From the NCBI GenBank assembly GCA_965217775.1, contig CBDCJH010000002.1, positions 1,056,001 to 1,120,000 on the forward strand: a stretch of DNA of 64,000 bases. Reading direction: 5' to 3'. Position numbers and translations under genes: made by a program. Positions 7,587 to 21,513 of this stretch are shown one piece after another. Under the pieces are notes generated by a model, which saw nothing but the letters and a program-made list of their open reading frames with translations, did not search any database and was not told the DNA's origin. Source of the stretch: Acidobacteriota bacterium (GTDB lineage: Bacteria; Acidobacteriota; UBA6911; RPQK01; JAJDTT01). Each line of letters begins with the position of its first letter. The first letter of the stretch is position 1.

Positions 7587-8669
7587 ATGATGGGAAACAA
7601 GCTCAGAGATCCATCGTACTCCCGCCGCCAGTGGATGGGGCTGGCCACACTGGGCGGCATAACGGCAGTGTCCGCGGGACCACGACCGGCGACTTCGGAA
7701 ACACCGGCCGGTCCGCACCGTCTCGCTTTGAGGGCCGGAGAGTTGGAGGCCCTGGTGGTGGACAACCACGACGGGCTGGCCGGTGAGGAACAGAAACGCA
7801 GCCGGGCTTCGGTCCCCCATGTGGCCGGAGGATTGGGACGCCTTAGCGTCGCAGTCCCCTTCGAGAGGCGTCACAATGGCTACAACGGAGTCGCGCGCTT
7901 CAGTTACCGGGGATCTCCACACCCCTTTCTCCCCGTTGCTTCGGGTCTGAATTGCGAGTTCTTCTTCGACGGAACCGAGGGCACCTTCGAACCCCGCTGG
8001 AGTGACCTCGATAATTTCCAGGCCCAGCCGTCGAGCTTGAAGCGGGTATCCGAGCAAGAGGCTTGGCTCCGGATCGAACCCGGCGAACGGTGGGGCGTCC
8101 AGGTGGAGTCCACCTTCCGATTGGTGGAACCGTGGTTCCTGGACGTGGAGCACGCCTTCACACCCACCCGGCTGGACAAGATCCGGACCCGGTATTTGGG
8201 CGTGTTCTGGGCCAGCTACATCCAGGCTCCCCGAAATCCGGGCTACTACGTTTGGGGCCGGAGGTCGAACTTCGAATCGCCCGCTTGGCACGGTATCTTC
8301 GACGCCCTGGATTTGCACGAATCGGGAGCGATCCGGGCCGAGCGGGGTCCAGTGGGGGAGGGATTGCGGGCTCAGGGAAGGCGTCTGCTCTACAGCTTCG
8401 GCTCGGTGCGCTACGTCGAACCTCTGATGGCCGGCAAGGTCCACGGCATGTTGCTGGCCTACCTGTTCCGCCCTTCAGACGAGTTGGAAATCCGCCCCGC
8501 CTTCAACGCCGGCGGGGGAGGAGTCGGCGGCCCCGCTTGGGACTACCAGGCGGTGGTCCCGGACCCGGAGGAAGGACGCCGCTACAGCTTTCGGCTGAGA
8601 GTCGTCTACAAGCCGTTCGAAGCTCTGGACGAGGCCCTGGAACTCCATCGGGAGTGGGTCACGGGATAG
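7587..8669 (+). CDS. Tat-signal hypothetical protein (mutarotase-like beta fold possible)
   Basis: SRRQWMGLA twin-arginine leader; long ORF with typical codon usage. Confidence 0.6.
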   Translation: MMGNKLRDPSYSRRQWMGLATLGGITAVSAGPRPATSETPAGPHRLALRAGELEALVVDNHDGLAGEEQKRSRASVPHVAGGLGRLSVAVPFERRHNGYNGVARFSYRGSPHPFLPVASGLNCEFFFDGTEGTFEPRWSDLDNFQAQPSSLKRVSEQEAWLRIEPGERWGVQVESTFRLVEPWFLDVEHAFTPTRLDKIRTRYLGVFWASYIQAPRNPGYYVWGRRSNFESPAWHGIFDALDLHESGAIRAERGPVGEGLRAQGRRLLYSFGSVRYVEPLMAGKVHGMLLAYLFRPSDELEIRPAFNAGGGGVGGPAWDYQAVVPDPEEGRRYSFRLRVVYKPFEALDEALELHREWVTG

Positions 8670-8912: not shown

Positions 8913-9227
8913 CTAAGCGGCCACGCCAGGTTGGGGCGTCACCTCCTTGTCGAGTCGATCCTTGAGGACAGCCTTCGCTGTTTCAAGCTCGTAGCGAGAC
9001 TGCAAATTCATCCAGAATCGAGCGGAGTTTCCAAAGTACCTGCTTAACCGGAGCGCCGTGTCTGCCGTGATGGCGCGCTTCTCGTGAAAGATCTCATTGA
9101 TCCGGCGGGGCGGCACCGAGATGTCCTTGGCCAGCCGGTATTGGGTCAGGCCCATCGGCTTCATGAACTCCTCCCGCAGAATTTCTCCGGGATGGATGGG
9201 TTGCAGGGTCTGGTCTCTCTGATCCAT
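8913..9227 (-). CDS. higA: HigA antitoxin
   Basis: PIHPGEILREEF, ITADTALRLSRYFG, FWMNLQ. Confidence 0.95.
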   Translation of the reverse strand: MDQRDQTLQPIHPGEILREEFMKPMGLTQYRLAKDISVPPRRINEIFHEKRAITADTALRLSRYFGNSARFWMNLQSRYELETAKAVLKDRLDKEVTPQPGVAA

Positions 9228-9252: not shown

Positions 9253-9534
9253 CTAGTGGTAGTCCACCACCTCCACGTCAAACGCGTCGCCGGTCTCCCA
9301 GTGAAAGCAGATCCGCCATTGTCGATTGATCCGGACGCTATATTGGCCTTTGCGGTTGCCCGAGAGCGCCTCCAGCCGGCTGGAGGGTATCATCTTGAGG
9401 TCCCTGAGCGATTCGGCTGCGTCCAGCATTTCCAGCTTCCTGAGTGCAGCTTTCTTCAAAACCGGCGGAAACTTCCGTTGAAGCCGCCTGTTGAAGAGCT
9501 TTTCAGTGTCCTTGCAGTGGAAGCTCTTGATCAG
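9253..9534 (-). CDS. higB: HigB/RelE-family toxin
   Basis: IKSFHCKDTEKLF, RLEALSGNRKGQYSVRINRQWRICF, VVDYH; conserved start falls on CTG 9534. Confidence 0.9.
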   Translation of the reverse strand: MIKSFHCKDTEKLFNRRLQRKFPPVLKKAALRKLEMLDAAESLRDLKMIPSSRLEALSGNRKGQYSVRINRQWRICFHWETGDAFDVEVVDYH

Positions 9535-9540
9535 GGAAGG

Positions 9541-9569
9541 ATAATGACTCGGCGCGTTAAGGTTGTCAA
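9541..9569 (-). promoter_or_regulatory. Sigma70 promoter of higBA, probably leaderless transcript
   Basis: TTGACA (9569-9564), 17 bp spacer, CATTAT (9546-9541), ending 7 nt before the start codon. Confidence 0.65.
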
Positions 9570-9823
9570 GCGTTATGGTTCTCCCGCGCCGTCGAGGCGT
9601 GCCACCCTCCCCTGACCCAAATTGGCCCAGGTTTTTCCAACTCTTCAAGCGGTATCCGGCGTCCCGAAAGGTCTGCCCAATCCCAGCCTCCGAGAGTCAA
9701 TTCGGGGAGGACTGAGGCTGGAACCCTCTCCGTAGCCCGTTCCCGCATTCGGCCAGACGGGACTCTCTTGCATCACTAAATACTATCGAAGGTTCAACCT
9801 TCCGCCCGGAGGAACAGATCGCG

Positions 9824-11236
9824 ATGTCAGTCCACTTGCCAAGAAACCCGCACCTTCTGATGAACTACTGGCTCAGTCTGGCGAGGCTGAAACTTCCAAG
9901 AAAACGTTTTCGTCTCCTGTTCAGCTATTTTCAGCGGGAACCGACTTATTCGCTGGCGCTTGCCTCCCTGTCCGCGTACGCGAAGAATTTATTTCCGGAT
10001 GTTGAGGTGTCCCTGGTTTCCGTCCTCCAAAATGACGATGTCCAGGAATATGTGCGGCGTGTGGCGAAGCACAAGCCCGATCTCATCGCGGTCTCGGCCA
10101 TGCATCCGACCTGGTCGCCCATGCTTCCCTATTTGGAGGCTCTCAAGGGAGCGCGGCCGGCGACACCCGTCGTCGTCGGAGGATATCAGGCAATTTTCAG
10201 TCCTCAGGAGACCATCGGCCATCCGGCCGTCAACTACATCTGTGCGGGAGATGGCGAAATACCTCTGGCACAACTGATTCGACGTTTGAAAGATGGTGAG
10301 ACCCAGGAGGCCATTCCAGGGTTGTGGGAAAAGCGAGGCAGTGGAGAAATCGTCAAGAGCTCCCCAAGTCTGACCCCGAACTTGGACGAGATCCCCTTTC
10401 CCGACTACACGATCTTCGAGAAAGACGGGGAAATCTCCTGGCTCAGTTCTCATGCCATCGAGTCCGAGCGGCTGATCACGATGCCGGTCATGTCGGGCCG
10501 GGGGTGTCCCTACCGCTGCAGCTATTGTTGCAATACTCCATTGCTGGAAATGTATCGAGGACAGGGTAACTATTTACGAAAGTACAACCAGGAAAAGCTG
10601 ATCGAGGAATTAATTCGTTTGCGCGACCGTTACGGCATCCAATACTTCCAGTTTATGGATGAGACCTTTCTTTTCGACAAGCGATCCGCCCGGCGCCTTC
10701 TTGGGCTTTATCGGGAGCAGATCGGTCTTCCTTTCTCCATGTTCACCCGGGTGGAGCAGATGGACGAAGATTTTTGCCGCTACGCGGCAGCTGCCGGTTG
10801 TCACTCGATGTGGTTCGGTGTTGAAAGTGGGTCGGAGGCCTATCGCCGCCGCTACCTGGCTCGGAGAATGTCGAACCGGAAGATTCTGGATGCCGCCGAG
10901 ATGGCAAGAAGGCAGGGTATCAGGCGGATGGTCTTTTGCATGGTGGGGATGCCGTTCGAAAGCCGTGAGAATATTCTCGAAACCCTTGAGTTGACGAAAC
11001 TCATTGGGCCGGAACGAGCCATTTTCAGCCAGTATCTCCCTTTACCTGGAACGCCCTTGTACAAGGTCGCCGAACAAGCCGATCTTCTGCTGGACTCGAC
11101 CCGGAAGCAACAGATGTGGAGCATAGGCACGCTCAATATCAAGGAACAAGCCGGATCGGTCTCGGCACCGGAGTTCAAGGAGTTGGTGGACGAAATCTTG
11201 ACCTACGTCTGGGAAGGCAATCGGATTGACGATTGA
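9824..11236 (+). CDS. B12-binding radical SAM protein (class B methyltransferase-like)
   Basis: N-terminal B12-binding region (PDLIAVS, VVVGG, GDGE); GRGCPYRCSYC; FGVESGS. Confidence 0.9.
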   Translation: MSVHLPRNPHLLMNYWLSLARLKLPRKRFRLLFSYFQREPTYSLALASLSAYAKNLFPDVEVSLVSVLQNDDVQEYVRRVAKHKPDLIAVSAMHPTWSPMLPYLEALKGARPATPVVVGGYQAIFSPQETIGHPAVNYICAGDGEIPLAQLIRRLKDGETQEAIPGLWEKRGSGEIVKSSPSLTPNLDEIPFPDYTIFEKDGEISWLSSHAIESERLITMPVMSGRGCPYRCSYCCNTPLLEMYRGQGNYLRKYNQEKLIEELIRLRDRYGIQYFQFMDETFLFDKRSARRLLGLYREQIGLPFSMFTRVEQMDEDFCRYAAAAGCHSMWFGVESGSEAYRRRYLARRMSNRKILDAAEMARRQGIRRMVFCMVGMPFESRENILETLELTKLIGPERAIFSQYLPLPGTPLYKVAEQADLLLDSTRKQQMWSIGTLNIKEQAGSVSAPEFKELVDEILTYVWEGNRIDD

Positions 11237-11379: not shown

Positions 11380-12603
11380 ATGCGCTTCGATATCGATAAA
11401 CCACGGGACCGGCTGATCAGCGGGCGCATTCAGGCGTTGAGTGGATGGATTGAGGCCGACGGTCCTGATTTCACTCTGGTCGCCGTGTGTGGACGCCGCG
11501 AAATCCGGCTCCGAGAGTGTGCTCATCCGGTACGCCATCTGATTCCCGGAGCCCGCGGCTTCTGGGGGTACCTCGTCCTGCAAGAGTTCCTGGGGTCCAT
11601 ACGACGAGAATTCCTTCATGTCGACCTGATCTGGAAGGGCTCGCGTCTCACGACTCTGCATTTCCGGGTCTTCCCCGTGGCCAAAGAGCTGGCGCGTCGT
11701 TATCCCCTCGATTTGAAGAACTATCCAGTGGGAAGTCGGCATCCGGTGTTCGAGCCTTCGAAACCTGCCCGCGCTCTCGTCTTCCCAGGTCTTGCCCAGG
11801 TCGGAGGGTCGTCACTGAACCAACTGATGCGTTGGAAGATGTATCAGGAGGACTGGTGCTTTCCGGTATACGAGGATGGCAACGATGCGGAAACCTGGAC
11901 CCAATTCCGTGCACTCGAAATCCCCTCGGTCCGCTGGATCGACGGCCACGATTGCTATGGTGCCGCCGACAGTTTGAGCCAGCCGTTTGCTCGAATCACT
12001 CTATTACGCGAACCAATACAACGCTATGTGTCTCTTTTCAACTACGCATCGCTCGTGCATCCACAAGAGTTTGGCTACGCCACCTTCGAAGAGTCCATAT
12101 ACTCAGGTAAAGCCAGACAATATTCTCAATCCTACAGATTGCTGCAATGCGCCGGACGCGACGTATCACCGTCGATTCCTGACGATGAACTCTACACCAG
12201 GGCCAAACAGGAACTTGAGGCTTCCTATGCCTTTGTCGGCATTACCGAGTTATATGAAGAGAGCATCTTCCTGATATGCGAACTTGCCGGTATCGAGTCC
12301 ATCGGCATGTGGTGGAGGATTCTGTCTTCTCCCAAAAGCATCCGGCTTTGGAGCCTTTCCCTTCGGGCCCGGAACCGGCTGCGACGGCTCTTGGCCGTTG
12401 ATCTTCGCCTCTATAGAGAAAAGAGGCAGGATCTGCTCAATCTTCTACGTCGATCAGATTTTGGCACCGCCCTGAAGTCGTATCGAAAGGCTGCGCTCGA
12501 ACAGCCGGAACTGCCCGATGTCTTCAAGGCCGTCGAGTGTCTGCGATGGAGGCAGACGATTGCGGAAGAGCGGCTTGCACGCTTCGAACGGGATAAACGA
12601 TGA
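11380..12603 (+). CDS. Sulfotransferase-fold protein (Sulfotransfer_2-like) with atypical 5'-PSB loop
   Basis: ITLLREPIQRYVSLFNY (3'-PB), FVGITELYEES, DLRLY; 5' loop FPGLAQVGGSSL. Confidence 0.7.
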   Translation: MRFDIDKPRDRLISGRIQALSGWIEADGPDFTLVAVCGRREIRLRECAHPVRHLIPGARGFWGYLVLQEFLGSIRREFLHVDLIWKGSRLTTLHFRVFPVAKELARRYPLDLKNYPVGSRHPVFEPSKPARALVFPGLAQVGGSSLNQLMRWKMYQEDWCFPVYEDGNDAETWTQFRALEIPSVRWIDGHDCYGAADSLSQPFARITLLREPIQRYVSLFNYASLVHPQEFGYATFEESIYSGKARQYSQSYRLLQCAGRDVSPSIPDDELYTRAKQELEASYAFVGITELYEESIFLICELAGIESIGMWWRILSSPKSIRLWSLSLRARNRLRRLLAVDLRLYREKRQDLLNLLRRSDFGTALKSYRKAALEQPELPDVFKAVECLRWRQTIAEERLARFERDKR

Positions 12604-15044
12604 CTGAGACACTCATGGGTCATACCGGTGCTCCGGCGGACCAATCCATTCATCGATCGGCGGCTGGAGGCTTCCTGACCAAGGCGGAGGCGTTGGAGTT
12701 TGTGCACGGAAATCTGAAATATGCGCAGATTCCGCCGTTTCTATATTTTTCCGTTGGCGAGTGGCGATGGCGCAACGAAAACGTTTTGCGCAAGGTCGCA
12801 GCCTTTCTGTCCGAACGTCCGCTCGCCGTACGAAGTTCCGCCCGGTGCGAGAACCTGAGCGGTGCCTCTCTGGCGGGGCATTTCCGGTCCTGTTTGAACG
12901 TGGAAAACGATCGGAGGCCGGTCCGGGAAGCTGTCGAGCGGGTGATCGCTTCCATGGGCGGCCACCGGGACGATCAGGTTCTGATTCAAGAGATGGTGGT
13001 CGGCGTTTCTCTCAGCGGGGTCATTTCCACGCGAGACTCGGATACCGGTGCTCCCTACTACCGAATCGAATATGACGAGTCGTCCGCGACGGATCTCGTG
13101 ACCAGAGGGGCGGAGGGACACCAGACCATTCTCTTCCATCGGCAGTCACCGCGAGAACTGATCGGACCGGATTGGGTCTGCCGGGTTCTGGATGCCTCCT
13201 CGGAGCTGGAGCGGTGCTGGGGCCGGACTCCACTGCATATCGAGTTTGCACGGACTCATGACGGGAAAATCCAGATTCTTCAGGTGCGGCCGATATCGAG
13301 CCGGGAGCAACGGGGACGGGGGCATGAGGCGCGAACGATTGCAGCCCTGCGGAAGCTTGAGATCTCCTTGGTCGAACATTCTCGTCGCCGGCACGGCGTC
13401 GCCGGATCAACCACGATTCTCGGGCAGATGCCGGACTGGAACCCGGGAGAACTGATCGGAAGTACGCCTCGACCGCTCGCCGTGTCACTGTTTCGCAAAC
13501 TGATCACGGATAGGGTGTGGCAGGAAGCTCGTTCCACCATGGGTTACCGTCCCGTCCCGGACACGCCGCTGATGGTCGTGCTCGCCGGGAGACCTTACGT
13601 GGATGTCCGGGCGAGCTTCAATTCGTTTCTCCCCGCGGGACTGCGCCGTCTCGACGAAGGTGCGGTTGTAAATGCTTGGCTTGGCCGATTACGTCAATAT
13701 CCGGAATACCACGATAAAATTGAGTTTCAGGTCGCCCAGACAGTATTGGACTTTTCGTTCGGGCAAGACTATCGGCGGCGATATGCAGGCACGCTGTCTC
13801 GCAAGTCGTTCTTGGACTATGCCGAGCGAGTGCGTTGCCTGACGAATCGCAACGTTTCCCTTGGCCCTTCCGCGTCGTTGGCTGAGGCGCTCCGCAAGTT
13901 ACGGAAGTTGGAACAGGCTCAGAGTTGCCGAGAATCTGCGATTCGGCCGTCTCTCTCCTTTGCGTTTCGATTGTTGCGGGAGTGTCGTCTGCTCGGCACG
14001 CTCCCGTTCGCCATTGTCGCGCGCCACGCCTTTATCGCGGAATCGATACTCCGGTCCGCAATGCGGAGGTCCGCGTTGAGCCGGGAACGATTGGATCAGT
14101 TCCGGCGTTCGTGGAGTACCGTGGGTCGGAATGTGGGGCGTGACTTGGCCAGAGTCATGCACGGCGAGGTCGACGCGGTTTCGTTCCTTGGAAAATACGG
14201 ACATCTGAGACCGGGCTCTTTCGACATCCTCTCTCCCCGCTACGACCAACGGCCGGACCTGTTTGCGGGCAATTCCGTCCACCCATCGACATTCGAGTCC
14301 GAAGGGGACTGTTTTGTTTGGACTCCAAAAGAAATCGTCCACATCGAACGCCTTATCAGGGAAGCAAGGCTGACCTTCAGCGCTGAAGAACTGTTCCGCT
14401 ACTCAGCGACGGCCGTCACGGCTCGAGAACATGCGAAATTCGTTTTCAGCCGGCATCTATCGGACGCTTTGGAATCCATCGCCGGTTGGGGAAAGGGGGT
14501 CGGCCTCAGTCGCGAACAGCTCTCGTACTTGACGGTTGAGGATCTGAAATCCGCACTCCGCTCTCCCCTTGGCGATGGCGGAGTCGCGTTGGCGGCCGTG
14601 GCAGAGTCCGGACGGTCGGCAACACGAAGCCGGCGAGGTCTCCGCCTGGGCTGCCTGATCCGCAACCGCAGAGATATCTACCTTCCGCTACAGCATGCAT
14701 GGCCCAACTTCATCAGCTCTCGCCGCGCCGAGGGTAGACCGGTGTTTCTGCATAACCGGGAGTCGGTTGCGTTGGATCTGAGCGGGAAAATAGTCTGCAT
14801 CGAGAGCGCGGACCCAGGCTTCGATTGGATATTCTCTATGGGGATCGCAGGCTTGATCACCAAGTTCGGCGGCTCCAATTCCCATATGGCGATCCGCTGC
14901 GCAGAGATGGGAATACCGGCTGCCGTCGGAATCGGTGAAACCCGCTTTGAACTCCTTCGAAAGTCGAAATCCGTCGAATTGAGCTGTGGTGACAGAGCGA
15001 TTCGGGCCATTCCTGGCCCACAGCCCGAACCCATGACCTGGTAA
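12600..15044 (+). CDS. PEP-utilising enzyme, L-glutamine kinase (Cj1418-like)
   Basis: AVRSSA..E, QMPDWNPGELIG, PYVDVRASFNSFLP, ADPGFDWIF, GGSNSHMAIRCAE (phospho-His domain). Confidence 0.9.
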   Translation: MTETLMGHTGAPADQSIHRSAAGGFLTKAEALEFVHGNLKYAQIPPFLYFSVGEWRWRNENVLRKVAAFLSERPLAVRSSARCENLSGASLAGHFRSCLNVENDRRPVREAVERVIASMGGHRDDQVLIQEMVVGVSLSGVISTRDSDTGAPYYRIEYDESSATDLVTRGAEGHQTILFHRQSPRELIGPDWVCRVLDASSELERCWGRTPLHIEFARTHDGKIQILQVRPISSREQRGRGHEARTIAALRKLEISLVEHSRRRHGVAGSTTILGQMPDWNPGELIGSTPRPLAVSLFRKLITDRVWQEARSTMGYRPVPDTPLMVVLAGRPYVDVRASFNSFLPAGLRRLDEGAVVNAWLGRLRQYPEYHDKIEFQVAQTVLDFSFGQDYRRRYAGTLSRKSFLDYAERVRCLTNRNVSLGPSASLAEALRKLRKLEQAQSCRESAIRPSLSFAFRLLRECRLLGTLPFAIVARHAFIAESILRSAMRRSALSRERLDQFRRSWSTVGRNVGRDLARVMHGEVDAVSFLGKYGHLRPGSFDILSPRYDQRPDLFAGNSVHPSTFESEGDCFVWTPKEIVHIERLIREARLTFSAEELFRYSATAVTAREHAKFVFSRHLSDALESIAGWGKGVGLSREQLSYLTVEDLKSALRSPLGDGGVALAAVAESGRSATRSRRGLRLGCLIRNRRDIYLPLQHAWPNFISSRRAEGRPVFLHNRESVALDLSGKIVCIESADPGFDWIFSMGIAGLITKFGGSNSHMAIRCAEMGIPAAVGIGETRFELLRKSKSVELSCGDRAIRAIPGPQPEPMTW

Positions 15045-15103
15045 TCCGAAAACTCGAGGAGAGAATGAGAATCTGACGGCTCGAATTCTGGTGAGGAAAA
15101 CAT

Positions 15104-15748
15104 TTGAGCGGCACATGGCGACTGGGTTTGACGATGCGAGTGCAAGGATGTGACGACTCGCATGAACTTCGGGACGTGTTGGCCCATGACTGGCCGGTGC
15201 TCATCCGCGCCAGTCTGGGCGACGTGCCCTGGCTGGCGATACCGAATCTCGAGGAATCGGTAAAGGACTACCTGCAACGATGGCGGATCGGCGCCGTGAT
15301 TCTCACGGGCGGTGAAGACATCGGGACTTCCCCTTTGCGCGATGAGACCGAACGCCATGTTCTGGACTACTGCACCGAGAGGAGAATGCCGGTATTGGGA
15401 GTGTGCCGCGGGCATCAAATGATTCAGGTGTACTGCGGAGGCAGTCTGCAGAACGTGCCAACGGCGCGGCATGTCGGGACCAATCACTCGGTATTCGTTT
15501 GTCATGACAGGAGTCGTGCCGTATGGGGAAGCGGTCCGTTGAAGGTGAACTCCTACCATCGCCAGGGTGTGTCCCTGGAACGTCTCGGCCGGGGCCTGCA
15601 TCCGTGGTTGGTCTCCTCCGATGGTCTGGTCGAAGGGTTTTTCCATTCCGAAATGAATCTATTGGGCGTTCAATGGCATCCGGAACGGCGTCTTCCGGAC
15701 CCCGGTATGGCCAATAGACTCATGCGTTTCCGTTTCACTCGAAAATAG
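15104..15748 (+). CDS. Class I glutamine amidotransferase / gamma-glutamyl-CDP-amidate hydrolase (Cj1417-like)
   Basis: ILTGGED, GVCRGHQ, VNSYH, GVQWHPER. Confidence 0.85.
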   Translation: MSGTWRLGLTMRVQGCDDSHELRDVLAHDWPVLIRASLGDVPWLAIPNLEESVKDYLQRWRIGAVILTGGEDIGTSPLRDETERHVLDYCTERRMPVLGVCRGHQMIQVYCGGSLQNVPTARHVGTNHSVFVCHDRSRAVWGSGPLKVNSYHRQGVSLERLGRGLHPWLVSSDGLVEGFFHSEMNLLGVQWHPERRLPDPGMANRLMRFRFTRK

Positions 15749-15793
15749 GGCTGATCGCTGAGTGGGATCGACGGGTTCTCCAGGCCGAAAAGA

Positions 15794-16606
15794 ATGCCTC
15801 CAATGGACAAAGACGTTCGGAGTATGAAGCCAGGCCGGAATCGTGCGGGAAGTGTGAGGGCTCTGGTCTTGGCAGCGGGACGCGGCACTCGATTGAATCA
15901 TCTGACCCGCGATCGACCGAAGTCCCTGGTCACACTGGAGGGCAAGACCCTGTTGGAATGGCAGATCGCGTCCTTGAGGGCGGCGGGTGTCTCCGATATT
16001 ACGGTAGTTCGTGGATATCGGGGGGAGATGATCGATCTTCCCGGACTTGCGTACCTGGAGAACGCCGATTGGGCACGAACCAACATGGTCCATTCGTTGA
16101 GATGTGCCGATGAGTGGTTGAAGGCGTCGGTCTGCATCGTCTCCTACGGAGATATTGTCTACCACCCAAGCTTGGTTTCCGCCCTGGTCGATACGCCCGG
16201 AGAGATCGTCGTCGCCTATGACGTTCTATGGGAAAGGCTTTGGCAAGAGCGCTTCGAGGATCCGGCAGTCGACGTGGAGAGCTTTCGAATCGAGGATGGA
16301 TGGATCGTGGAGATCGGGGAAAGCGTCAGTTCATTGGAATCGGTCGAAGGCCAATACCTGGGACTGTTCAAGTTGGCGCCCGAGGGTTGGCGCAAGATAC
16401 GTGGGTTTTTGAGCCTGACGGAGGACGCGACGGCTCGAAGTCTTGACGTGACCGCCTTGCTCAGCCGTCTGATTGGGGAAGGGATCAAAGTCAAGGGAAT
16501 CCCGATCCGAGGCCGCTGGTGCGAGCTCGACCACGTCACGGACCTACGGATATATGAGCGAATGATCCAATCAGACACGCAGTGGAGCCACGATTGGCGG
16601 CTCTGA
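15794..16606 (+). CDS. NTP transferase, phosphoglutamine cytidylyltransferase (Cj1416-like)
   Basis: LAAGRGTRL..LT.DRPK, TNMVHSL, SYGDIVY, WCELDH. Confidence 0.85.
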   Translation: MPPMDKDVRSMKPGRNRAGSVRALVLAAGRGTRLNHLTRDRPKSLVTLEGKTLLEWQIASLRAAGVSDITVVRGYRGEMIDLPGLAYLENADWARTNMVHSLRCADEWLKASVCIVSYGDIVYHPSLVSALVDTPGEIVVAYDVLWERLWQERFEDPAVDVESFRIEDGWIVEIGESVSSLESVEGQYLGLFKLAPEGWRKIRGFLSLTEDATARSLDVTALLSRLIGEGIKVKGIPIRGRWCELDHVTDLRIYERMIQSDTQWSHDWRL

Positions 16607-16666
16607 AGCACCGTGGGGCCGTGGGGCGGGACTGACGTCGAGGGGGCTACGCCATGGGGTTCCCCA

Positions 16667-17230
16667 ATGAATGAGATCTGGCCGGACTGGCCTGAGATCG
16701 GGTCCGAGGGCAAGAGGGGATGGGTGTTCTGGGTGACCGGTTTGTCAGGTAGTGGAAAGACCACGATCGGACAGCTTCTTTTCCGGCGCCTGCGGGAGCG
16801 GGCCGTCAATTCAGCATTTTTGGATGGAGACGTTCTACGCCAGGTTTTCGGCAATGATTTGGGGTACACACTGGAAGAAAGAAGGAAGTGCGCACGGCGC
16901 TACTCACGGATCAGTGCGATGCTTGCCGGCCAGGGTCTGAACGTGGTGATCGCGACGATTTCGATGTTCCACGAATGTAGCGAATGGAATCGGGCGAACC
17001 TTCCCCGATACTTTGAAATCTACCTGCGGGTTCCGCGGGATATCCTGGCTATCCGACGGTCTCCGGATCTGGGCGCCAATCCGGAACGGAGTCAGATGGA
17101 ATCCGTTGTCGGTTGGGATCTGCCCTTCGATGAGCCTCTCAATCCCGATCTGATCATCGACAACGACGGCTCGATGGCTCCGCAGGAAGTTGCGGACTCC
17201 ATTTGGAGTAGGGTCGTAGCGTCGTTATGA
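16667..17230 (+). CDS. APS-kinase-like protein, cytidine diphosphoramidate kinase (Cj1415-like)
   Basis: WVTGLSGSGKTT, FLDGDVLR, ATISMF; context beside Cj1416-18 homologues; start uncertain (16613 or 16667). Confidence 0.8.
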   Translation: MNEIWPDWPEIGSEGKRGWVFWVTGLSGSGKTTIGQLLFRRLRERAVNSAFLDGDVLRQVFGNDLGYTLEERRKCARRYSRISAMLAGQGLNVVIATISMFHECSEWNRANLPRYFEIYLRVPRDILAIRRSPDLGANPERSQMESVVGWDLPFDEPLNPDLIIDNDGSMAPQEVADSIWSRVVASL

Positions 17231-17239
17231 CGTCCATCC

Positions 17240-18043
17240 ATGATGGATACCTGGGATTACACTGCTTTAGCTGCTTCCTACAACAAGCGGGCACCCTATT
17301 CGAAACAGGTCATTGACGAATTTCTGCGGAACTCAGGTGTCAGGAGCGGTGCGAAAGCCTGCGACATCGGGGCCGGAACCGGTAACTTGACGTTGTTCCT
17401 GCTCAAATGGGGACTTCGAGTCGTAGCTGTAGAGCCGAACCCGGCCATGCGCGCGATCGGGATGCCTCGGACGAAGTCTTTTCCCGATATTCGTTGGATA
17501 AATGCCCGTGGCGAGGCAACCGGACTACCGGCGTCGGAATTCGACGTCGTCACCTTCGGCTCGTCGTTCAATGTCCTCGATCGGAACCGAGCTCTCGTGG
17601 AGACCGCTCGCATCCTCAAGCCGAAGGGTTGGTTCGCCTGCGTCTGGAATTACAGAAACCTCGACGACCCGTTGCAGAGGAGGATCGAGGAGGTGATCCA
17701 CGGATTCGTGTCCCGCTACGATTACGGCGTGAGGCGCGAAGATCAGACCGAAGTTATCCAGGCGAGCGGTCTTTTTGACCGGATCGTCAGGATTGACCGG
17801 GGGTTCAAACACCGGACAAAAGCATCGGATTGCATGGATGCCTGGCGAAGTCACGCCACCCTCGCTCGTCAAGCCGGTCCGAAAACGCTCGGTCGGATCC
17901 TCGAGAAGATCGAATGCTTGCTGACGGAACCGGGTGGAAGGGACGTCGAGGTGCCCTACACGACCTCCCTCTGGATGGCAAAAAAGTCCGACGCCTGGAA
18001 TGAATCACCGGGTCCGGCTGCTCAGCGGAACCGTAGCGAGTAG
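17240..18043 (+). CDS. Class I SAM methyltransferase (Cj1419-like)
   Basis: WDYTALA..Y.KRAPYS, DIGAGTG, VEPN, TFGSSFNV, WRSHATL. Confidence 0.85.
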   Translation: MMDTWDYTALAASYNKRAPYSKQVIDEFLRNSGVRSGAKACDIGAGTGNLTLFLLKWGLRVVAVEPNPAMRAIGMPRTKSFPDIRWINARGEATGLPASEFDVVTFGSSFNVLDRNRALVETARILKPKGWFACVWNYRNLDDPLQRRIEEVIHGFVSRYDYGVRREDQTEVIQASGLFDRIVRIDRGFKHRTKASDCMDAWRSHATLARQAGPKTLGRILEKIECLLTEPGGRDVEVPYTTSLWMAKKSDAWNESPGPAAQRNRSE

Positions 18044-19503
18044 AGGTCCGCGTCCTTCATCACGAAACGCAGGCGCACCGGCTTCCCCGAGAATCGCGCC
18101 AGGGGTTTGGACGAGGTGGCCTTGGGATGGTTTCGTTTCCACCGGACCGTGTGCTCGATCTCGTCGCCCCAGATCAACGGGGACTCCTCCAGGGCGAATC
18201 CGGCCAGGGGCCGTCCGCCGGCGTCCTGGATCTCCAACCGGATGCTTCCCGCCGCCGAGGTCGCGAAGTTCAACACCAGGTTCTCACCCGTGAAGGTCAG
18301 AGGCCGGGTGATCAGTTCGCCTCCTTCCGGGCCGGCATGCACCGACATGAATCCGTCGGTCCGGATCACCATCCGCTCCAGGTAGTTGGTGGGAAACGTG
18401 TAGTGGCGTTGGACGAACAGCGAGATCTCGTCTGGCGCGGTCGCCAGTAGGCCCCAGGCGGGCGTGTTGGAGCGATGGGACCAGTTCCGTATCTCGGTCC
18501 CAGGACGAATGAAGGCATCCAGTTGGCGATTCCAGTGGATGGCGTCGCGGCTGGACATGAAGATGGCGTCGGAGCAACCGCCGCCTTGAGCCTGATTGAA
18601 GGGGCCCCGCGTCTTCCAGGGGTGGAAACGCCGGGGAAAGGCCAGATAGATGTGAGGCGCCCTGAAGTAAGGGCGGGTCGCGTTGGTGTAGAGGTGCTCG
18701 GCGGGTGCATCCCCGAACTCTCCCCATTGGCCCGGCGTCCAATTCCTGAAGTCGGTGGAGGTGGCGATCTTGATGGTGCGAACTCCGAGCTTGAAATCCC
18801 GGTAGACGGAGACGTAGCGCTGGTGGGCCGTGTCCCAGAAGGCCAGATTGGGAGAGTCGAAGGCCCCGTCGGTGATGATGGGCTCCTCCCTCATCTCCTT
18901 CCAGTGGATTCCGTCGGGTGAAACGAATGCGTAGAGAGCCCGTCGGTGCGGACCCACGGCCTTGTAGAGTTCGGAAACGGGCGCCTCAGGGTTCGAATCC
19001 TTGAAGGGAAGAAAGGCCGGCGTGCCTTTTCCCATCCAGACGATGTTGTTGTCCCTGGTTCCTTCGTACTCGTATAGCCCCAGCGAGGGCCGGGTCCAGT
19101 GGATCCCGTCCCGGCTCTCGGCGTAGCACGCGGTATGGGGGTGCTCGGGGATCACCTCCTCACCCGGCTCCAGGAGCGACTCCAGGGCGTATCCGGCATG
19201 ACTGCTGCCCCGGTAGTACATTCGGTAGAGATCACCGTCCTGGAAAACGACAGCCGTGCTTCCACTGGTCACTCCCTCCCAGGGCCGGTCGAAGACCAGC
19301 ACCTTTCCGGCGCGCCGAGGGGTGTGGAGCTTGAGTTCCAGACCCTTCAGGGAGTCGATGAGGTAGTTGTCGACAAAAATCTCCAGACGGGAGTCCAACT
19401 CCCGCACCTCTGCGAGAGCCTTCCGGTCGTGCCGGCCGCCTTCGAGGGCGGAAGGAGAGATCATGATCAGGACGAGTAACGGGTTAAGGAATCGGAATCT
19501 CAA
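18022..19503 (-). CDS. Secreted beta-propeller glycoside hydrolase-like protein
   Basis: Signal peptide; repeated Asp-box-like S.DGIHW motifs; MKDADLYSLRF end. Confidence 0.65.
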   Translation of the reverse strand: MRFRFLNPLLVLIMISPSALEGGRHDRKALAEVRELDSRLEIFVDNYLIDSLKGLELKLHTPRRAGKVLVFDRPWEGVTSGSTAVVFQDGDLYRMYYRGSSHAGYALESLLEPGEEVIPEHPHTACYAESRDGIHWTRPSLGLYEYEGTRDNNIVWMGKGTPAFLPFKDSNPEAPVSELYKAVGPHRRALYAFVSPDGIHWKEMREEPIITDGAFDSPNLAFWDTAHQRYVSVYRDFKLGVRTIKIATSTDFRNWTPGQWGEFGDAPAEHLYTNATRPYFRAPHIYLAFPRRFHPWKTRGPFNQAQGGGCSDAIFMSSRDAIHWNRQLDAFIRPGTEIRNWSHRSNTPAWGLLATAPDEISLFVQRHYTFPTNYLERMVIRTDGFMSVHAGPEGGELITRPLTFTGENLVLNFATSAAGSIRLEIQDAGGRPLAGFALEESPLIWGDEIEHTVRWKRNHPKATSSKPLARFSGKPVRLRFVMKDADLYSLRFR

Positions 19504-19517
19504 GGAAGTGTTGCTCC

Positions 19518-20057
19518 TCAGGGTTTCCCATCGCCAGCGGTGCCGTACAGCTCGAAACGAACTCGGATCGGGCCGCTGGGATGGTTCTCATGAAAAAGGG
19601 CCGAAACCGTTCCGGTCGGGTCCTCGCTGCGGTACAGGCGTAGCGTGGCATTCCAGAATCGCGGCGTTTCCAGGTATTGAGGCATGCCGGTCTTGCTCTT
19701 GTGGCGTTCAGCGTCGGTGCCGATGGGGATTGACGTGGGGTGCAGGTGCACCGTTCCCACCAGAGGCCACCCGGTGGGGGTGGTCCAATCGGTGGCGTCC
19801 ACGGGCACACCCCGGAGAGCGACCGGGCCGCCCGACGAGGAGAGGAAATGCAGCCGGATAGCCCCGTCCTCTGACCGGACCTCCAAGTCGAAGGGTCCCT
19901 TTTCCAGAAGGGTCCCCTCAGCGGTTCGAAGACTCACCGGCAGTCGGACCTTACCGGCAAAGGGGGCCGCGCTCTGGGGCAGGGGACCGGCGACCGTAGC
20001 GGACATCAGGCCCAGAAGAGCGAACGCCCGCCACGCCGTCTCAAGCCGAATGGCCAA
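19518..20057 (-). CDS. Hypothetical secreted protein
   Basis: Signal-like N-terminus, overlaps DUF1501 stop. Confidence 0.55.
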   Translation of the reverse strand: MAIRLETAWRAFALLGLMSATVAGPLPQSAAPFAGKVRLPVSLRTAEGTLLEKGPFDLEVRSEDGAIRLHFLSSSGGPVALRGVPVDATDWTTPTGWPLVGTVHLHPTSIPIGTDAERHKSKTGMPQYLETPRFWNATLRLYRSEDPTGTVSALFHENHPSGPIRVRFELYGTAGDGKP

Positions 20058-21513
20058 TGGACCTCCCCGTCAGCCTCCGATACAGGTTCTCGCCGGCCTC
20101 GCCGGCTTCGCCGACTCCACTGAGACGCCGGTCCAGGCCCTGGAAGAAATAGGTCAGCCTGCGGTGGTCCAGTCCCATCAGCCCCAGCATGGCGGCGTGG
20201 AGGTCGTTGACGTGCATCTTGTCCTGGGTGGCCACGAAACCCAGATCGTCGGTGGCGCCGATGGCCTGGCCTCCGCGAACACCGCCTCCCGCCATCCAGG
20301 CGCTGAAGCCGAAGGGATTGTGGTCGCGCCCCTCCTTGCCCTGCATGACCGGAGTCCGGCCGAATTCGCCCGTGGAAATGACCAGGGTGCTCTCCAGCAG
20401 TCCCCGCTGTTTGAGGTCTTCCAGCAGGCCGGCCATGGGCTGGTCCGTCTTCCACGAGTTCTTCATGTGGTTCTTGTCGCACTCGCCGTGAGCGTCCCAG
20501 CCGCCGCTGTAGAGATGGACGAAGCGGACGCCCCGCTCCACCATTCGCCGCGCCAGGAGGCACATGCGGCCGAACTTGCGGGTCTGATCCTGATCCAGGC
20601 CGTACATCCGCTTCACATGCTCCGGCTCCCCGGAGAGGTCGATGAGCTCGGGCGCCGCCATCTGCATGCGGAAAGCCAACTCGTAGTTCCGGATTCTGGC
20701 CTCCAGGCGGCTGTCTCCGGGCCGGGTCTGCAGATGCGTCTGGTTCCATCCCTCGATTCTCTCGAGCAGAGCCCGCTGCCGGTTCAGGTCCATCTGGGAA
20801 GGGGGCCGCAGGTTCTGGAAGGGCTGCCCCTCCGTATTGATGAGTGTCCCCTGGTAGATCGCCGGGAGGAAGCCGGTGCTGAAGTTGGAGGTGCTGGACC
20901 GAAAGATGCTGTCGGTCATCACGATGTAGGAGGGCAGGTTGTCCGTCTCGCTCCCCAGGCCGTACAGGATCCAGGAGCCCATGCTGGGACTTCCCAACTG
21001 GAGGCTCCCCGTGTGCAGGTAGGTGAGAGCCGGACCGTGGACGAACGACTCGTGGTGACAGGACCGGATGACGGCCATGTCGTCCGCGTGCTTCGCGAGT
21101 CCTTCGAAGAGATCCGAGATCTCGATGCCGGACCGCCCCCTCTTCTTGAAGGTCCGGCGGCTGGCCATGAGCTTGGACTCGTAGGGATTGATCTGGGCCA
21201 GTTCCAGGTCCGTCCGGTAGCTGGAGGGAAGAGGTTGGCCGTCGTAGCGCTCCAAAGCGGGCTTGGGGTCGAAGCTGTCCACCTGGCTCAAGCCGCCCTG
21301 CATGAAGAGAAAGATGACGCTCTTGGCCTGGGACGGAAAGTGGGGTTCTTTGGGAGCGAGAGGATAAACAGTCCGGTCGATGCCCGCAAGGAGCCGGCCC
21401 TCCTGTTCCAGAAGACCGCCCAGGGCCAGCGAGCCGAACCCGAAGGAGGAGGCTTTCAGAAAATCGCGCCGTGAACCGACCTGAACGGTGCCCTGGCAAG
21501 CGTTGGGAATCAA
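20041..21513 (-). CDS. DUF1501 domain protein (Tat signal)
   Basis: SRRDFLK; AKSVIFLFMQGGLSQVDSFDPKP; LARRMVERGVRFV; GEFGRTP. Confidence 0.92.
   Translation of the reverse strand: MIPNACQGTVQVGSRRDFLKASSFGFGSLALGGLLEQEGRLLAGIDRTVYPLAPKEPHFPSQAKSVIFLFMQGGLSQVDSFDPKPALERYDGQPLPSSYRTDLELAQINPYESKLMASRRTFKKRGRSGIEISDLFEGLAKHADDMAVIRSCHHESFVHGPALTYLHTGSLQLGSPSMGSWILYGLGSETDNLPSYIVMTDSIFRSSTSNFSTGFLPAIYQGTLINTEGQPFQNLRPPSQMDLNRQRALLERIEGWNQTHLQTRPGDSRLEARIRNYELAFRMQMAAPELIDLSGEPEHVKRMYGLDQDQTRKFGRMCLLARRMVERGVRFVHLYSGGWDAHGECDKNHMKNSWKTDQPMAGLLEDLKQRGLLESTLVISTGEFGRTPVMQGKEGRDHNPFGFSAWMAGGGVRGGQAIGATDDLGFVATQDKMHVNDLHAAMLGLMGLDHRRLTYFFQGLDRRLSGVGEAGEAGENLYRRLTGRSIGHSA

Follow-up and report, generated by a model that had tools for sequence, protein, structure and literature searches.

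A sulfotransferase-fold protein without the loop lysine is encoded in a phosphoramidate-donor cassette of an Acidobacteriota bacterium and is a candidate phosphoramidate transferase

The window, a stretch of 64,000 nucleotides from a soil bacterium of the Acidobacteriota, contains a cassette of seven genes in the order B12-radical-SAM gene, sulfotransferase-like gene, homologues of Cj1418, Cj1417, Cj1416 and Cj1415, and SAM methyltransferase gene (Table 1). The Cj1418 homologue was recognised by NF004508, the Cj1418-type glutamine kinase family, and the Cj1415 homologue by NF004041 (158.3 bits, cut-off 127). The best NCBIfam match of the Cj1417 homologue, NF045546, was under its cut-off (100 bits, cut-off 250), and every NCBIfam match of the radical SAM protein was far under cut-off. 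The position of the nucleotidyltransferase gene in the cassette is kept across related loci. Neither a further transferase-type protein nor a sulfate-activation gene was found in the cassette with Pfam and NCBIfam, and no polysaccharide gene could be recognised flanking the cassette in the window. The sulfotransferase-like gene is an open frame encoding a protein of 407 amino acids, and its stop codon (TGA, 12601-12603) shares the sequence ATGA with the start codon of the glutamine kinase gene (ATG, 12600), as had been read in the earlier note.

The same note had assumed a cassette without a Cj1421-type gene. NF058596 (CJJ1420_fam) and PF11186 (DUF2972), presumably the families of Cj1421 and Cj1422, gave no match in the window's genome, in agreement with this assumption, neither search having a positive control; searches of control genomes also gave no match. 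The two models did not match the 407-aa protein or 28 of its relatives either (Pfam E up to 10, NCBIfam 0.01).

Table 1. Features of the cassette and of the sulfotransferase-like gene, with positions in the window.
Feature	Position	Strand	Remarks
B12-binding radical SAM protein, methylase-like family	9824..11236	+	Pfam Radical_SAM 82 bits, B12-binding 54.5 bits
Sulfotransferase-like gene	11380..12603	+	Candidate phosphoramidate transferase; Ig-like residues 1-~100, sulfotransferase fold ~127-367
5'-phosphosulfate-loop equivalent FPGLAQVGGSSL	residues 135-146, 11782..11817	+	Gln140 at Lys/Arg position
Gln140 codon	11797-11799	+	Lys/Arg position of sulfotransferases
His190, putative general base (WIDGHDC)	11947..11949	+	Invariance, alignment to heparan sulfate 2-O-sulfotransferase
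3'-phosphate motif LREPIQRYVS (Arg210, Ser218)	residues 209-218, 12004..12033	+	Row counts, alignment
L-glutamine kinase homologue (Cj1418 type)	12600..15044	+	NF004508 802.6 bits, cut-off 501; Pfam PPDK_N, PEP-utilizers
Gamma-glutamyl-CDP-amidate hydrolase homologue (Cj1417 type)	15104..15748	+	Pfam Peptidase_C26 85.7 bits
Nucleotidyltransferase, presumed CTP:phosphoglutamine cytidylyltransferase (Cj1416 type)	15794..16606	+	Pfam NTP_transf_3 64.5 bits
APS-kinase-family kinase, presumed CDP-amidate 3'-kinase (Cj1415 type)	16613..17230	+	Pfam APS_kinase 92.7 bits
Class I SAM-dependent methyltransferase, presumed O-methylation	17240..18043	+	Pfam Methyltransf_11 56.4 bits

About 68 homologues of the 407-aa protein were identified, with identities of 39-97%. 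Its matches to Sulfotransfer_2 (PF03567, 16.9 bits, gathering cut-off 22) and Gal-3-O-sulfotransferase (PF06990, 14.6 bits, gathering cut-off 27) were both under the cut-offs, and among 29 family members weak matches (E up to 10) to these two models were obtained for 17 and 26, respectively. With the 407-aa protein alone as query, a sequence search of the PDB gave no match, and a search of the ESM Atlas returned solely Sulfotransfer_2/Gal-3-O-sulfotransferase clusters. The PF03567 search of the window's genome, run with no positive control, gave no match. The AlphaFold2 model of the protein was confident (mean pLDDT 90.3, pTM 0.90); in it, a clear sulfotransferase fold is preceded by an Ig-like sandwich at the N-terminus. 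The best Foldseek matches of this model were heparan sulfate 6-O- and 2-O-sulfotransferases (E 6.9e-6), and the top seven were all sulfotransferases. By VIA-align the heparan sulfate 2-O-sulfotransferase 4ndz_B was aligned with a Z-score of 16.1 over 232 residues (rmsd 3.6), followed by dozens of sulfotransferases with Z-scores of 8-14, so that the fold proposed in the earlier note is borne out by structure prediction.

The active site of this fold is partly kept and partly lost. The 3'-phosphate motif LREPIQRYVS was confirmed as intact and lies opposite IRDPIERLVS of heparan sulfate 2-O-sulfotransferase; in the profile alignment, RvTlLRePlrRlvS of the family is opposite INVIRDPIERLVS of that enzyme. 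Arg210 was found in 75/75 and Ser or Thr at position 218 in 76/76 family rows. His190 is present in 76/76 family and 141/143 outgroup rows; in heparan sulfate 2-O-sulfotransferase its counterpart is the second His of the GHVSY stretch, which is opposite GHxC of the family. In an alignment of the 407-aa protein with 28 of its 68 homologues, G142, G143, H190, R210, P212 and R215 were invariant. Lys or Arg at the loop position, which is required for sulfuryl transfer, was found in none of 71 family rows compared to 110/121 outgroup rows, and the His position of the 'HIPK' stretch is Gly in 65/71 family rows. Of these two losses, both previously noted for the protein in the window, that of Lys/Arg extends to the whole family, but the Gln found in the window's protein is not typical of the family: the position is mostly occupied by Ala (40 of the 71 rows) or Gly (23), and Gln (6) is special to close relatives of the window's protein. 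Position 205 is Arg in 75/75 family rows and Tyr in 108/144 outgroup rows.

The neighbourhood of the gene was compared across 40 related loci, 11 on genome contigs and 29 from metagenomes, all of them derived from MAGs or metagenomes. A donor-pathway gene lies beside the sulfotransferase-like gene in 28 of the 40, and 10 of the remaining 12 end at a contig edge, so close homologues accompany the phosphoramidate genes and do not occur mostly without them. Only two loci, L053 and L062, have more than 1 kb of downstream sequence and no donor gene. In L053 a radical SAM gene, the sulfotransferase-like gene and a methyltransferase gene are followed by 6 kb without donor genes (428 bp upstream); in L062 the sulfotransferase-like gene is frameshifted and no cassette gene is present in the 1.4 kb downstream. 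At the genome loci, the glutamine kinase gene is directly downstream in 9/11 and the other two contigs stop within 35 bp, and the APS-kinase-type kinase and methyltransferase genes were found in all seven loci that reach that far. The metagenome loci contain the glutamine kinase gene (17 of 29), the kinase gene alone (2), only the radical SAM and/or methyltransferase gene (8), or nothing (2). The B12-radical-SAM gene adjoins the sulfotransferase-like gene in 10/11 genome and 21/29 metagenome loci.

Among 41 related genomes, a glutamine kinase above the cut-off was identified in four (G000, G002, G030 and G039). Three of these, G000, G002 and G039, carry the sulfotransferase-like gene, and the G030 contig begins at the kinase gene; a fifth genome, G007, has a decayed copy. 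Pairwise divergences of the 407-aa family and the glutamine kinase over 16 loci were correlated with r = 0.955, a value equalled by 0/2000 permutations, which is not independent proof because related sequences share their history. When the ORFs of 12 loci were compared all against all, no gene outside the 6-7-gene cassette was conserved between loci. In this comparison and in tblastx of the 1.5-kb flanks, no acceptor-related gene or small ORF was conserved around the cassette; the matches obtained were limited to shadow ORFs and a HigB/HigA pair.

Glutamine kinase cassettes outside the 407-aa family were also inspected. In two loci of another phylum, L081 and L084, Sulfotransfer_3-type proteins are encoded beside kinase-containing cassettes, and they lack the loop Lys/Arg: their loops read GPSGT and ATSGT, where CurM ST and TPST2 have PRSGS/PRSGT. 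A sulfotransferase-fold neighbour does not accompany every kinase-containing cassette: among 8 such loci from outside the family (L072, L081-L085 and the plasmid matches H1 and H2), one was recognised in only these 2. Neither of the two 413-aa hypothetical proteins encoded next to the kinase-containing cassette of plasmid CP026658.1 matched Pfam or the family profile. In a 747-aa TPR protein of an Azospirillum plasmid, the C-terminal half resembles, by eye, a Lys-less sulfotransferase domain. In kinase-free cassettes, CDP-using phosphotransferases are found in place of the sulfotransferase fold. For example, a Vibrio alfacsensis plasmid encodes a member of the CDP-glycerol glycerophosphotransferase family, pAtS4e a CDP-alcohol phosphatidyltransferase, and a Pseudohalocynthiibacter plasmid a protein with a weak Glyphos_transf match (21.2 bits, under the cut-off of 22.1). 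The plasmid search returned no Campylobacter record. A sample of 401 genomes of the phylum of G423 contained one glutamine kinase, in G423 itself, and a viral search with the glutamine kinase alignment found only two contigs, one short and the other from a giant virus.

In Campylobacter, the homologous glutamine kinase, cytidylyltransferase, gamma-glutamyl hydrolase and 3'-kinase build a phosphoramidate donor. An excerpt of PMC11800397 names CDP-phosphoramidate 3'-phosphate as the likely donor; the analogy between 3'-phospho-CDP-amidate and PAPS rests in part on the same source. Since a protein of sulfotransferase shape without the key lysine lies inside a cassette making a PAPS look-alike, it is the probable attaching enzyme, and because the cassette contains no other transferase-type protein and no gene outside it is conserved, the role would fall to it by elimination. 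We therefore consider it rather probable that the 407-aa protein transfers phosphoramidate, possibly methylated, from 3'-phospho-CDP-amidate. The earlier note had arrived at this reading by inference, and inference it still is, now supported by the co-occurrence, the fold, the kept 3'-phosphate site and His, and the lost Lys/Arg.

The protein would act as a cytoplasmic transferase whose donor is not PAPS but 3'-phospho-cytidine-5'-diphosphoramidate or its O-methyl ester, supplied by the neighbouring enzymes, the O-methyl group coming from the SAM methyltransferase. The 3'-phosphate would be held by the motif containing Arg210 and Ser218 and the alpha-phosphate by the glycine-rich loop (G142, G143 and S145). 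His190 would deprotonate the acceptor hydroxyl, which would then attack the terminal phosphorus with release of cytidine 3',5'-bisphosphate. The changes from Lys to Ala, Gly or Gln at position 140, from His to Gly at 137 and from Tyr to Arg at 205 may have re-tuned the pocket from -SO3 to -PO2(NH2) or -PO(OCH3)(NH2). It is not obvious why the loop Lys should have to be lost for a phosphoryl-type transfer, in which a cationic residue normally helps. The N-terminal Ig-like domain may bind the acceptor, and the B12-radical-SAM partner might introduce one further modification.

It is unlikely, but the best of the alternatives, that the protein binds a 3'-phosphorylated cytidine nucleotide and has a role other than phosphoramidate transfer to a sugar hydroxyl. 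The Cj1417-type hydrolase gene is missing from six family loci (L006, L008, L009, L050, L052 and L054), so the donor there may differ, and N-phosphoglutamine transfer from 3'-phospho-CDP-glutamine would be one option, although these genomes could carry the hydrolase gene at another position. Other options are modification of a small molecule or peptide that is also modified by the radical SAM enzyme, whose presence is nearly obligatory, and hydrolysis or recycling of the nucleotide; the lack of a glycosyltransferase or polysaccharide gene conserved around the cassette, or recognisable in the flanks in the window, is consistent with such roles. However, the kept general-base His and the sulfotransferase layout of the active site fit group transfer to a hydroxyl.

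It appears improbable that the protein is an ordinary PAPS-dependent sulfotransferase and sulfates the very acceptor that other cassette products decorate. Fold, catalytic His and 3'-phosphate motif are all of the sulfotransferase type, a 592-aa frame at another place on the contig contains a second APS-kinase domain (220.6 bits), so that PAPS may be available, and a Lys-containing relative is present in the kinase-free locus L086. Against this stand the family-wide loss of the loop Lys/Arg, the lack of a sulfate-activation gene in the cassette, and the finding that the gene was never without cassette genes in a locus that was long enough. Least credible is that the protein is a sulfotransferase relic without catalytic activity, acting as scaffold or nucleotide sensor for the cassette: it has lost both His137 and Lys140, hallmarks of the loop, which could mark a non-catalytic protein, but 34 columns, among them the catalytic His and every 3'-phosphate residue, are invariant over 29 sequences (39-87% identity), dN/dS to the L002 orthologue (92% identical) is 0.40, and the family gained new invariant residues near the site, Arg205, Trp186 and Cys192.

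Phosphoramidate transfer by the 407-aa protein may also be one case of a wider pattern. Tentatively, and at somewhat less than an even chance, loss of the loop Lys/Arg with a kept 3'-phosphate site and His could be a signature of a donor switch from PAPS to 3'-phospho-CDP-(methyl)phosphoramidate. This switch would have taken place independently on at least three occasions, in the Sulfotransfer_2-like 407-aa family and in two Sulfotransfer_3-like lineages. If so, the sulfotransferase fold would have a second, unrecognised chemistry, phosphoramidate decoration in environmental bacteria would reach far beyond what is suggested by the Campylobacter capsule, and in the 407-aa family the obligatory B12-radical-SAM partner would imply a further-modified P-N group that has not yet been described.

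In the literature consulted, no paper stating a phosphoramidate-transferring sulfotransferase fold and no reconstitution of the O-methyl phosphoramidate attachment step were found; in an excerpt of PMC12409886 the decoration step is still to be worked out as of 2025. The 407-aa protein is soluble, its model is confident and the proposed roles of its active-site residues are clear, which makes it a directly testable candidate for this attachment and for the purpose of the 3'-phosphate of the donor. If confirmed, it would add a new reaction to a well-studied fold, which assumes that Cj1421 and Cj1422 are not sulfotransferase-like. It would also provide a simple criterion by which 'sulfotransferases' could be re-annotated, namely a missing loop Lys/Arg together with a Cj1415-type kinase in the vicinity, and place P-N decoration in Acidobacteriota, Binatia, Verrucomicrobiae and 'Deltaproteobacteria' MAGs.

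Among known systems, Cj1421 and Cj1422 of Campylobacter jejuni are genetically required for O-methyl phosphoramidate on the capsule, according to an excerpt of PMC11800397. Their genes adjoin cj1415-cj1418, as the gene of the 407-aa protein adjoins the homologues, but there is no sequence match between the families, and the NF058596 model has 596 positions compared to 407 amino acids. The best structural matches, the heparan sulfate 2-O- and 6-O-sulfotransferases (4ndz, 3f5f and 5t03; Z-scores of 16.1-14.4 over ~230 residues), have the GH general-base stretch, the RxPxxRxxS motif and the G(I/V)TE helix in common with the family at 12-18% identity to the 407-aa protein. They use PAPS, whereas the family lacks the loop Lys and has the extra N-terminal Ig-like domain, and no membrane anchor is evident in the sequence of the 407-aa protein. 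The Sulfotransfer_2-type outgroup with its F.HIPKTGGT loop shares the domain, scoring 85-150 bits with the family profile, and has His, Arg and Ser at the equivalent positions; in contrast to the family, it mostly keeps the loop Lys/Arg and Tyr at 205, and lacks the N-terminal domain. Its eight genome loci (L013-L020) have no adjacent cassette, and three are near an APS-kinase-like gene (26-29% identity). The TagF-type and CDP-alcohol phosphatidyltransferase neighbours share the presumed role of last-step transferase of the P-N group, but they have another fold, their presumed donor is CDP-amidate without the 3'-phosphate, and their cassettes are those without a Cj1415-type kinase.

Re-reading of the sequence confirmed three details of the earlier note on P0001, the 407-aa candidate sulfotransferase-fold protein: the open reading frame with its FPGLAQVGGSSL loop (residues 135-146), the LREPIQRYVS motif (residues 209-218) and the ATGA overlap between its stop codon and the start of the following gene. 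The gene belongs to a tight run of seven genes on one strand, which also contains the donor-pathway genes (homologues of Cj1418, Cj1417, Cj1416 and Cj1415). By inspection of the sequence, no hydrophobic N-terminus was evident in P0001.

Features of the P0001 cassette and its flanks (window coordinates)
Feature	Position	Strand	Evidence
Open reading frame	7587-8669	+	no Pfam or NCBIfam match
HigA-like HTH antitoxin and HigB-like RelE-family toxin pair	8913-9227 and 9253-9648	-	
B12-binding radical SAM protein	9824-11236	+	Pfam/NCBIfam search
P0001, sulfotransferase-fold candidate	11380-12603	+	open frame, 407 aa
Glutamine kinase homologue	12600-15044	+	NF004508, 802.6 bits (cut-off 501)
Class-I glutamine amidotransferase-type hydrolase	15104-15748	+	top NCBIfam match gamma-glutamyl-CDP-amidate hydrolase, 100 bits (under the 250 cut-off)
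NTP_transf_3 nucleotidyltransferase	15794-16606	+	
APS-kinase-family kinase	16613-17230	+	NF004041, 158.3 bits (cut-off 127)
Class I SAM methyltransferase	17240-18043	+	
Open reading frame	18022-19503	-	no Pfam match
Open reading frame	19684-21474	+	no Pfam match

The G+C content of the cassette is 57.3%, compared to 61-63% in the flanks. The toxin-antitoxin pair lies immediately upstream of the cassette, and a related HigA/HigB pair (∼50% identity by tblastx) was observed immediately downstream of the cassette at the distant locus L003 (16255-16851). Together, these pairs and the lower G+C content hint at mobility of the cassette as one unit. The three sizeable flanking frames were not kept beside the cassette in other loci.

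Sequence-level recognition of P0001 was marginal (Sulfotransfer_2, 16.9 bits, cut-off 22), and a PDB sequence search with P0001 as single query gave no match. The sulfotransferase fold was borne out by structure prediction: an AlphaFold2 model built from a 29-sequence alignment reached a mean pLDDT of 90.3 and a pTM of 0.90, and all seven Foldseek matches with E ≤ 0.001 were heparan sulfate 6-O- or 2-O-sulfotransferases. VIA-align placed 4ndz_B (Z 16.1, 232 residues, rmsd 3.6) and 5t05_B (Z 14.4) before many further sulfotransferases (Z 8-10), and each of these alignments covers model residues ∼127-367. Apart from this region, residues 1-100 make up an Ig-like sandwich, which matched unrelated Ig/FnIII-type domains at Z 7.4-7.7.

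A word-index search identified 73 proteins, of which 68 showed 39-97% identity (complete members P0004-P0063, 391-456 aa), while the remaining five were weak matches to ordinary 'sulfotransferase family 2' proteins. An exhaustive profile search gave 15 full-length representatives (50% clustering) at 451-608 bits, plus fragments; the next non-fragment scored 150 bits. It found 1803 proteins at E ≤ 1e-10, and among the matches listed these were mostly single sulfotransferase domains of 250-300 aa without the N-terminal domain. Alignment of P0001 and 28 homologues drawn from these 68 revealed 34 invariant columns, including G142, G143, R151, W186, G189, H190, C192, R205, T207, R210, P212, R215, H227, P228, E290 and E294. 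Relative to the 92%-identical orthologue at locus L002, dN/dS was 0.40, at a dS of merely 0.095.

For analysis of the active site, all 212 proteins collected were aligned to the family profile, yielding 243 domain rows. At position 140, the Lys of F.HIPKTGGT, none of the 71 family rows carried Lys or Arg (Ala 40, Gly 23, Gln 6, Ser 2), whereas Lys was found in 100 and Arg in 10 of 121 outgroup rows. Position 137, the His of the same motif, is Gly in 65/71 family rows and His in 105/119 outgroup rows; position 205 is Arg in all 75 family rows and Tyr in 108/144 outgroup rows. His190, Arg210 and Pro212 are conserved throughout the family and position 218 is Ser (70) or Thr (6) in 76 rows, the same residues occurring in 141-144 of 143-144 outgroup rows. 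The family has therefore retained the general base and the site for the nucleotide 3'-phosphate, and the surroundings of the transferred group have been replaced in a fixed way; the intact 3'-phosphate motif and lost loop Lys, first noticed in P0001 alone, hold family-wide. The best-scoring outgroup proteins (P0089, P0090, P0093, P0095 and P0099) likewise have no Lys or Arg at the loop position. One such gene, in a Bdellovibrionota MAG (L013), has no adjacent cassette; that genome has a glutamine kinase locus on the same contig, at a distance of 575 kb.

Full-length relatives of P0001 were located at 11 genome-contig loci (L002-L012) in MAGs of Acidobacteriota, Candidatus Binatia, 'Deltaproteobacteria', Polyangiaceae and Verrucomicrobiae. 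In nine, the gene immediately downstream is the glutamine kinase, the other two contigs stopping within 35 bp of the P0001-type gene, and the radical SAM gene adjoins in all except the Verrucomicrobiae locus L004 (10/11). The APS-kinase-family kinase and the methyltransferase are present in 7/7 genome loci reaching that far, and the hydrolase in four of these. Among 29 metagenome loci, 17 contain the glutamine kinase, two short ones have the kinase directly after the gene, eight have solely the radical SAM and/or methyltransferase gene, and two have no cassette gene; L044 of this set and L003 of the genome set are one contig. Thus, instead of homologues occurring mostly without phosphoramidate genes, a donor-pathway gene was present at 28 of 40 loci, and for 10 of the other 12 the contig ends within ∼1 kb. 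At L053, a radical SAM gene, the P0001-type gene and a methyltransferase gene precede two PD40-repeat genes, and the upstream sequence amounts to only 428 bp; at L062 the P0001-type gene is frameshifted.

Glutamine kinase scored above cut-off in 4 of 41 related genomes: in G000, G002 and G039 it adjoins the P0001-type gene, and in G030 the contig starts at it. G007, of the same genus as the window's genome, carries a decayed cassette in which the P0001-type gene is reduced to its last 60 residues. In this copy (L038, G007:C43:72000-91999, about 12500-16000) the radical SAM gene lies in two pieces ∼2 kb apart, the glutamine kinase was matched over residues 1-456 and 554-814 with 457-553 unmatched, and the four genes downstream share 95-97% identity with their counterparts in the window.

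Across 16 loci, divergence of the P0001 family correlated with that of the glutamine kinase (r = 0.955, reached by 0 of 2000 permutations), a correlation that shared ancestry alone would also produce. Between the loci compared, no genes beyond the 6-7-gene cassette and no nearby polysaccharide gene were conserved. In six family loci (L006, L008, L009, L050, L052 and L054) the hydrolase is absent between glutamine kinase and nucleotidyltransferase; either it is encoded elsewhere or a different donor is used, e.g., a CDP-glutamine derivative.

Of 401 genomes sampled from the phylum to which genome G424 belongs, seven have the glutamine kinase, and six new loci (L081-L086) were examined. As an independent replicate, a Sulfotransfer_3-type protein lies directly beside two kinase-containing cassettes, i.e., those with the APS-kinase-family kinase, at L081 (52 bits) and L084 (92.9 bits). 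Where CurM ST and TPST2 have PRSGS and PRSGT loops, these proteins read GPSGT and ATSGT; as in the P0001 family, the loop has no cationic residue. The kinase-free L086 encodes a Sulfotransfer_2-like protein retaining the Lys (IPKCATHT) and L082 a LicD-family protein; no recognised candidate was found at L083 and L085. Since a recognised sulfotransferase-fold neighbour occurs at just two of eight kinase-containing loci outside the P0001 family, the pairing is not strict. A plasmid search gave 14 records with glutamine kinase, and three kinase-free plasmid cassettes encode CDP-using phosphotransferases: Vibrio alfacsensis pYa108, Pseudohalocynthiibacter pRR4-35_2 (a weak match, Glyphos_transf 21.2 bits, under the 22.1 cut-off) and Allorhizobium ampelinum pAtS4e. 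These phosphotransferases and the Lys-less proteins at L081 and L084 fit a donor 3'-phosphate that serves a sulfotransferase-type nucleotide site.

On plasmid p2 of the cultured Azospirillum sp. TSA2s, a kinase-containing cassette includes a 747-aa 'tetratricopeptide repeat protein' (L089, 15651-17894, -). Its C-terminal ∼350 residues matched no Pfam family, and by eye show a Lys-free glycine-rich loop and an R.P..R..S-like stretch; judged from these motifs, a further sulfotransferase-like domain without Lys may be present here, in an organism that is tractable. A kinase-containing cassette on plasmid CP026658.1, with a B12-radical-SAM gene nearby, lies between the genes of two 413-aa hypothetical proteins that are paralogues (L092, 7646-8887 and 12842-14083, +); these proteins matched neither Pfam nor the P0001-family profile and may be yet another transferase type. 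An IMG/VR giant-virus MAG contig of 23.5% G+C encodes a 1273-aa ORF (L087, 8576-12397, +) in which hydrolase, nucleotidyltransferase and glutamine kinase domains (Peptidase_C26, NTP_transferase, PPDK_N/PEP-utilizers) are fused, with neither kinase nor sulfotransferase-like gene within 10 kb by the queries used here.

The earlier note had proposed that P0001 transfers phosphoramidate from a PAPS-like donor, and each computational test that could be made (co-occurrence, fold and active site) favoured this function. Fold, conserved residues and genetic linkage are the observed part of the proposal. The donor would be 3'-phospho-CDP-amidate or its O-methyl ester, with Arg210 and Ser218 holding its 3'-phosphate and the GG(S/A)S loop its alpha-phosphate; His190 would activate the acceptor hydroxyl and cytidine 3',5'-bisphosphate would leave. 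Loss of Lys140 and His137 and gain of Arg205 might make the pocket suited to an -NH2 or -OCH3 substituent. Several points weigh against it. Loss of a cationic residue would not be predicted a priori for a phosphoryl-type transfer, PAPS may be present because the window's genome encodes a second APS-kinase domain, and the hydrolase is absent from the six family loci named above. On balance, these tests suggest with moderate confidence that P0001 is a phosphoramidate transferase.

A search among openly accessible papers for literature linking glutamine kinase with a sulfotransferase found none; judged from the listings, phosphoramidate with sulfotransferase and Campylobacter gave nothing related and 'phosphoramidate transferase' only phase-variation work. 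According to PMC11800397, loss of Cj1421 or Cj1422 abolishes the decoration, and in PMC12409886 the decoration step is still future work as of 2025. NF058596 and DUF2972, taken as models of Cj1421/Cj1422, matched neither P0001 and its relatives nor, in searches run without a positive control, the window's genome. In the family profile, GHVSY of heparan sulfate 2-O-sulfotransferase aligns with GHaCy and its INVIRDPIERLVS with RvTlLRePlrRlvS. P0001 would be a non-orthologous last-step enzyme in a variant of the known phosphoramidate pathway, and possibly represents a second chemistry for the sulfotransferase fold.
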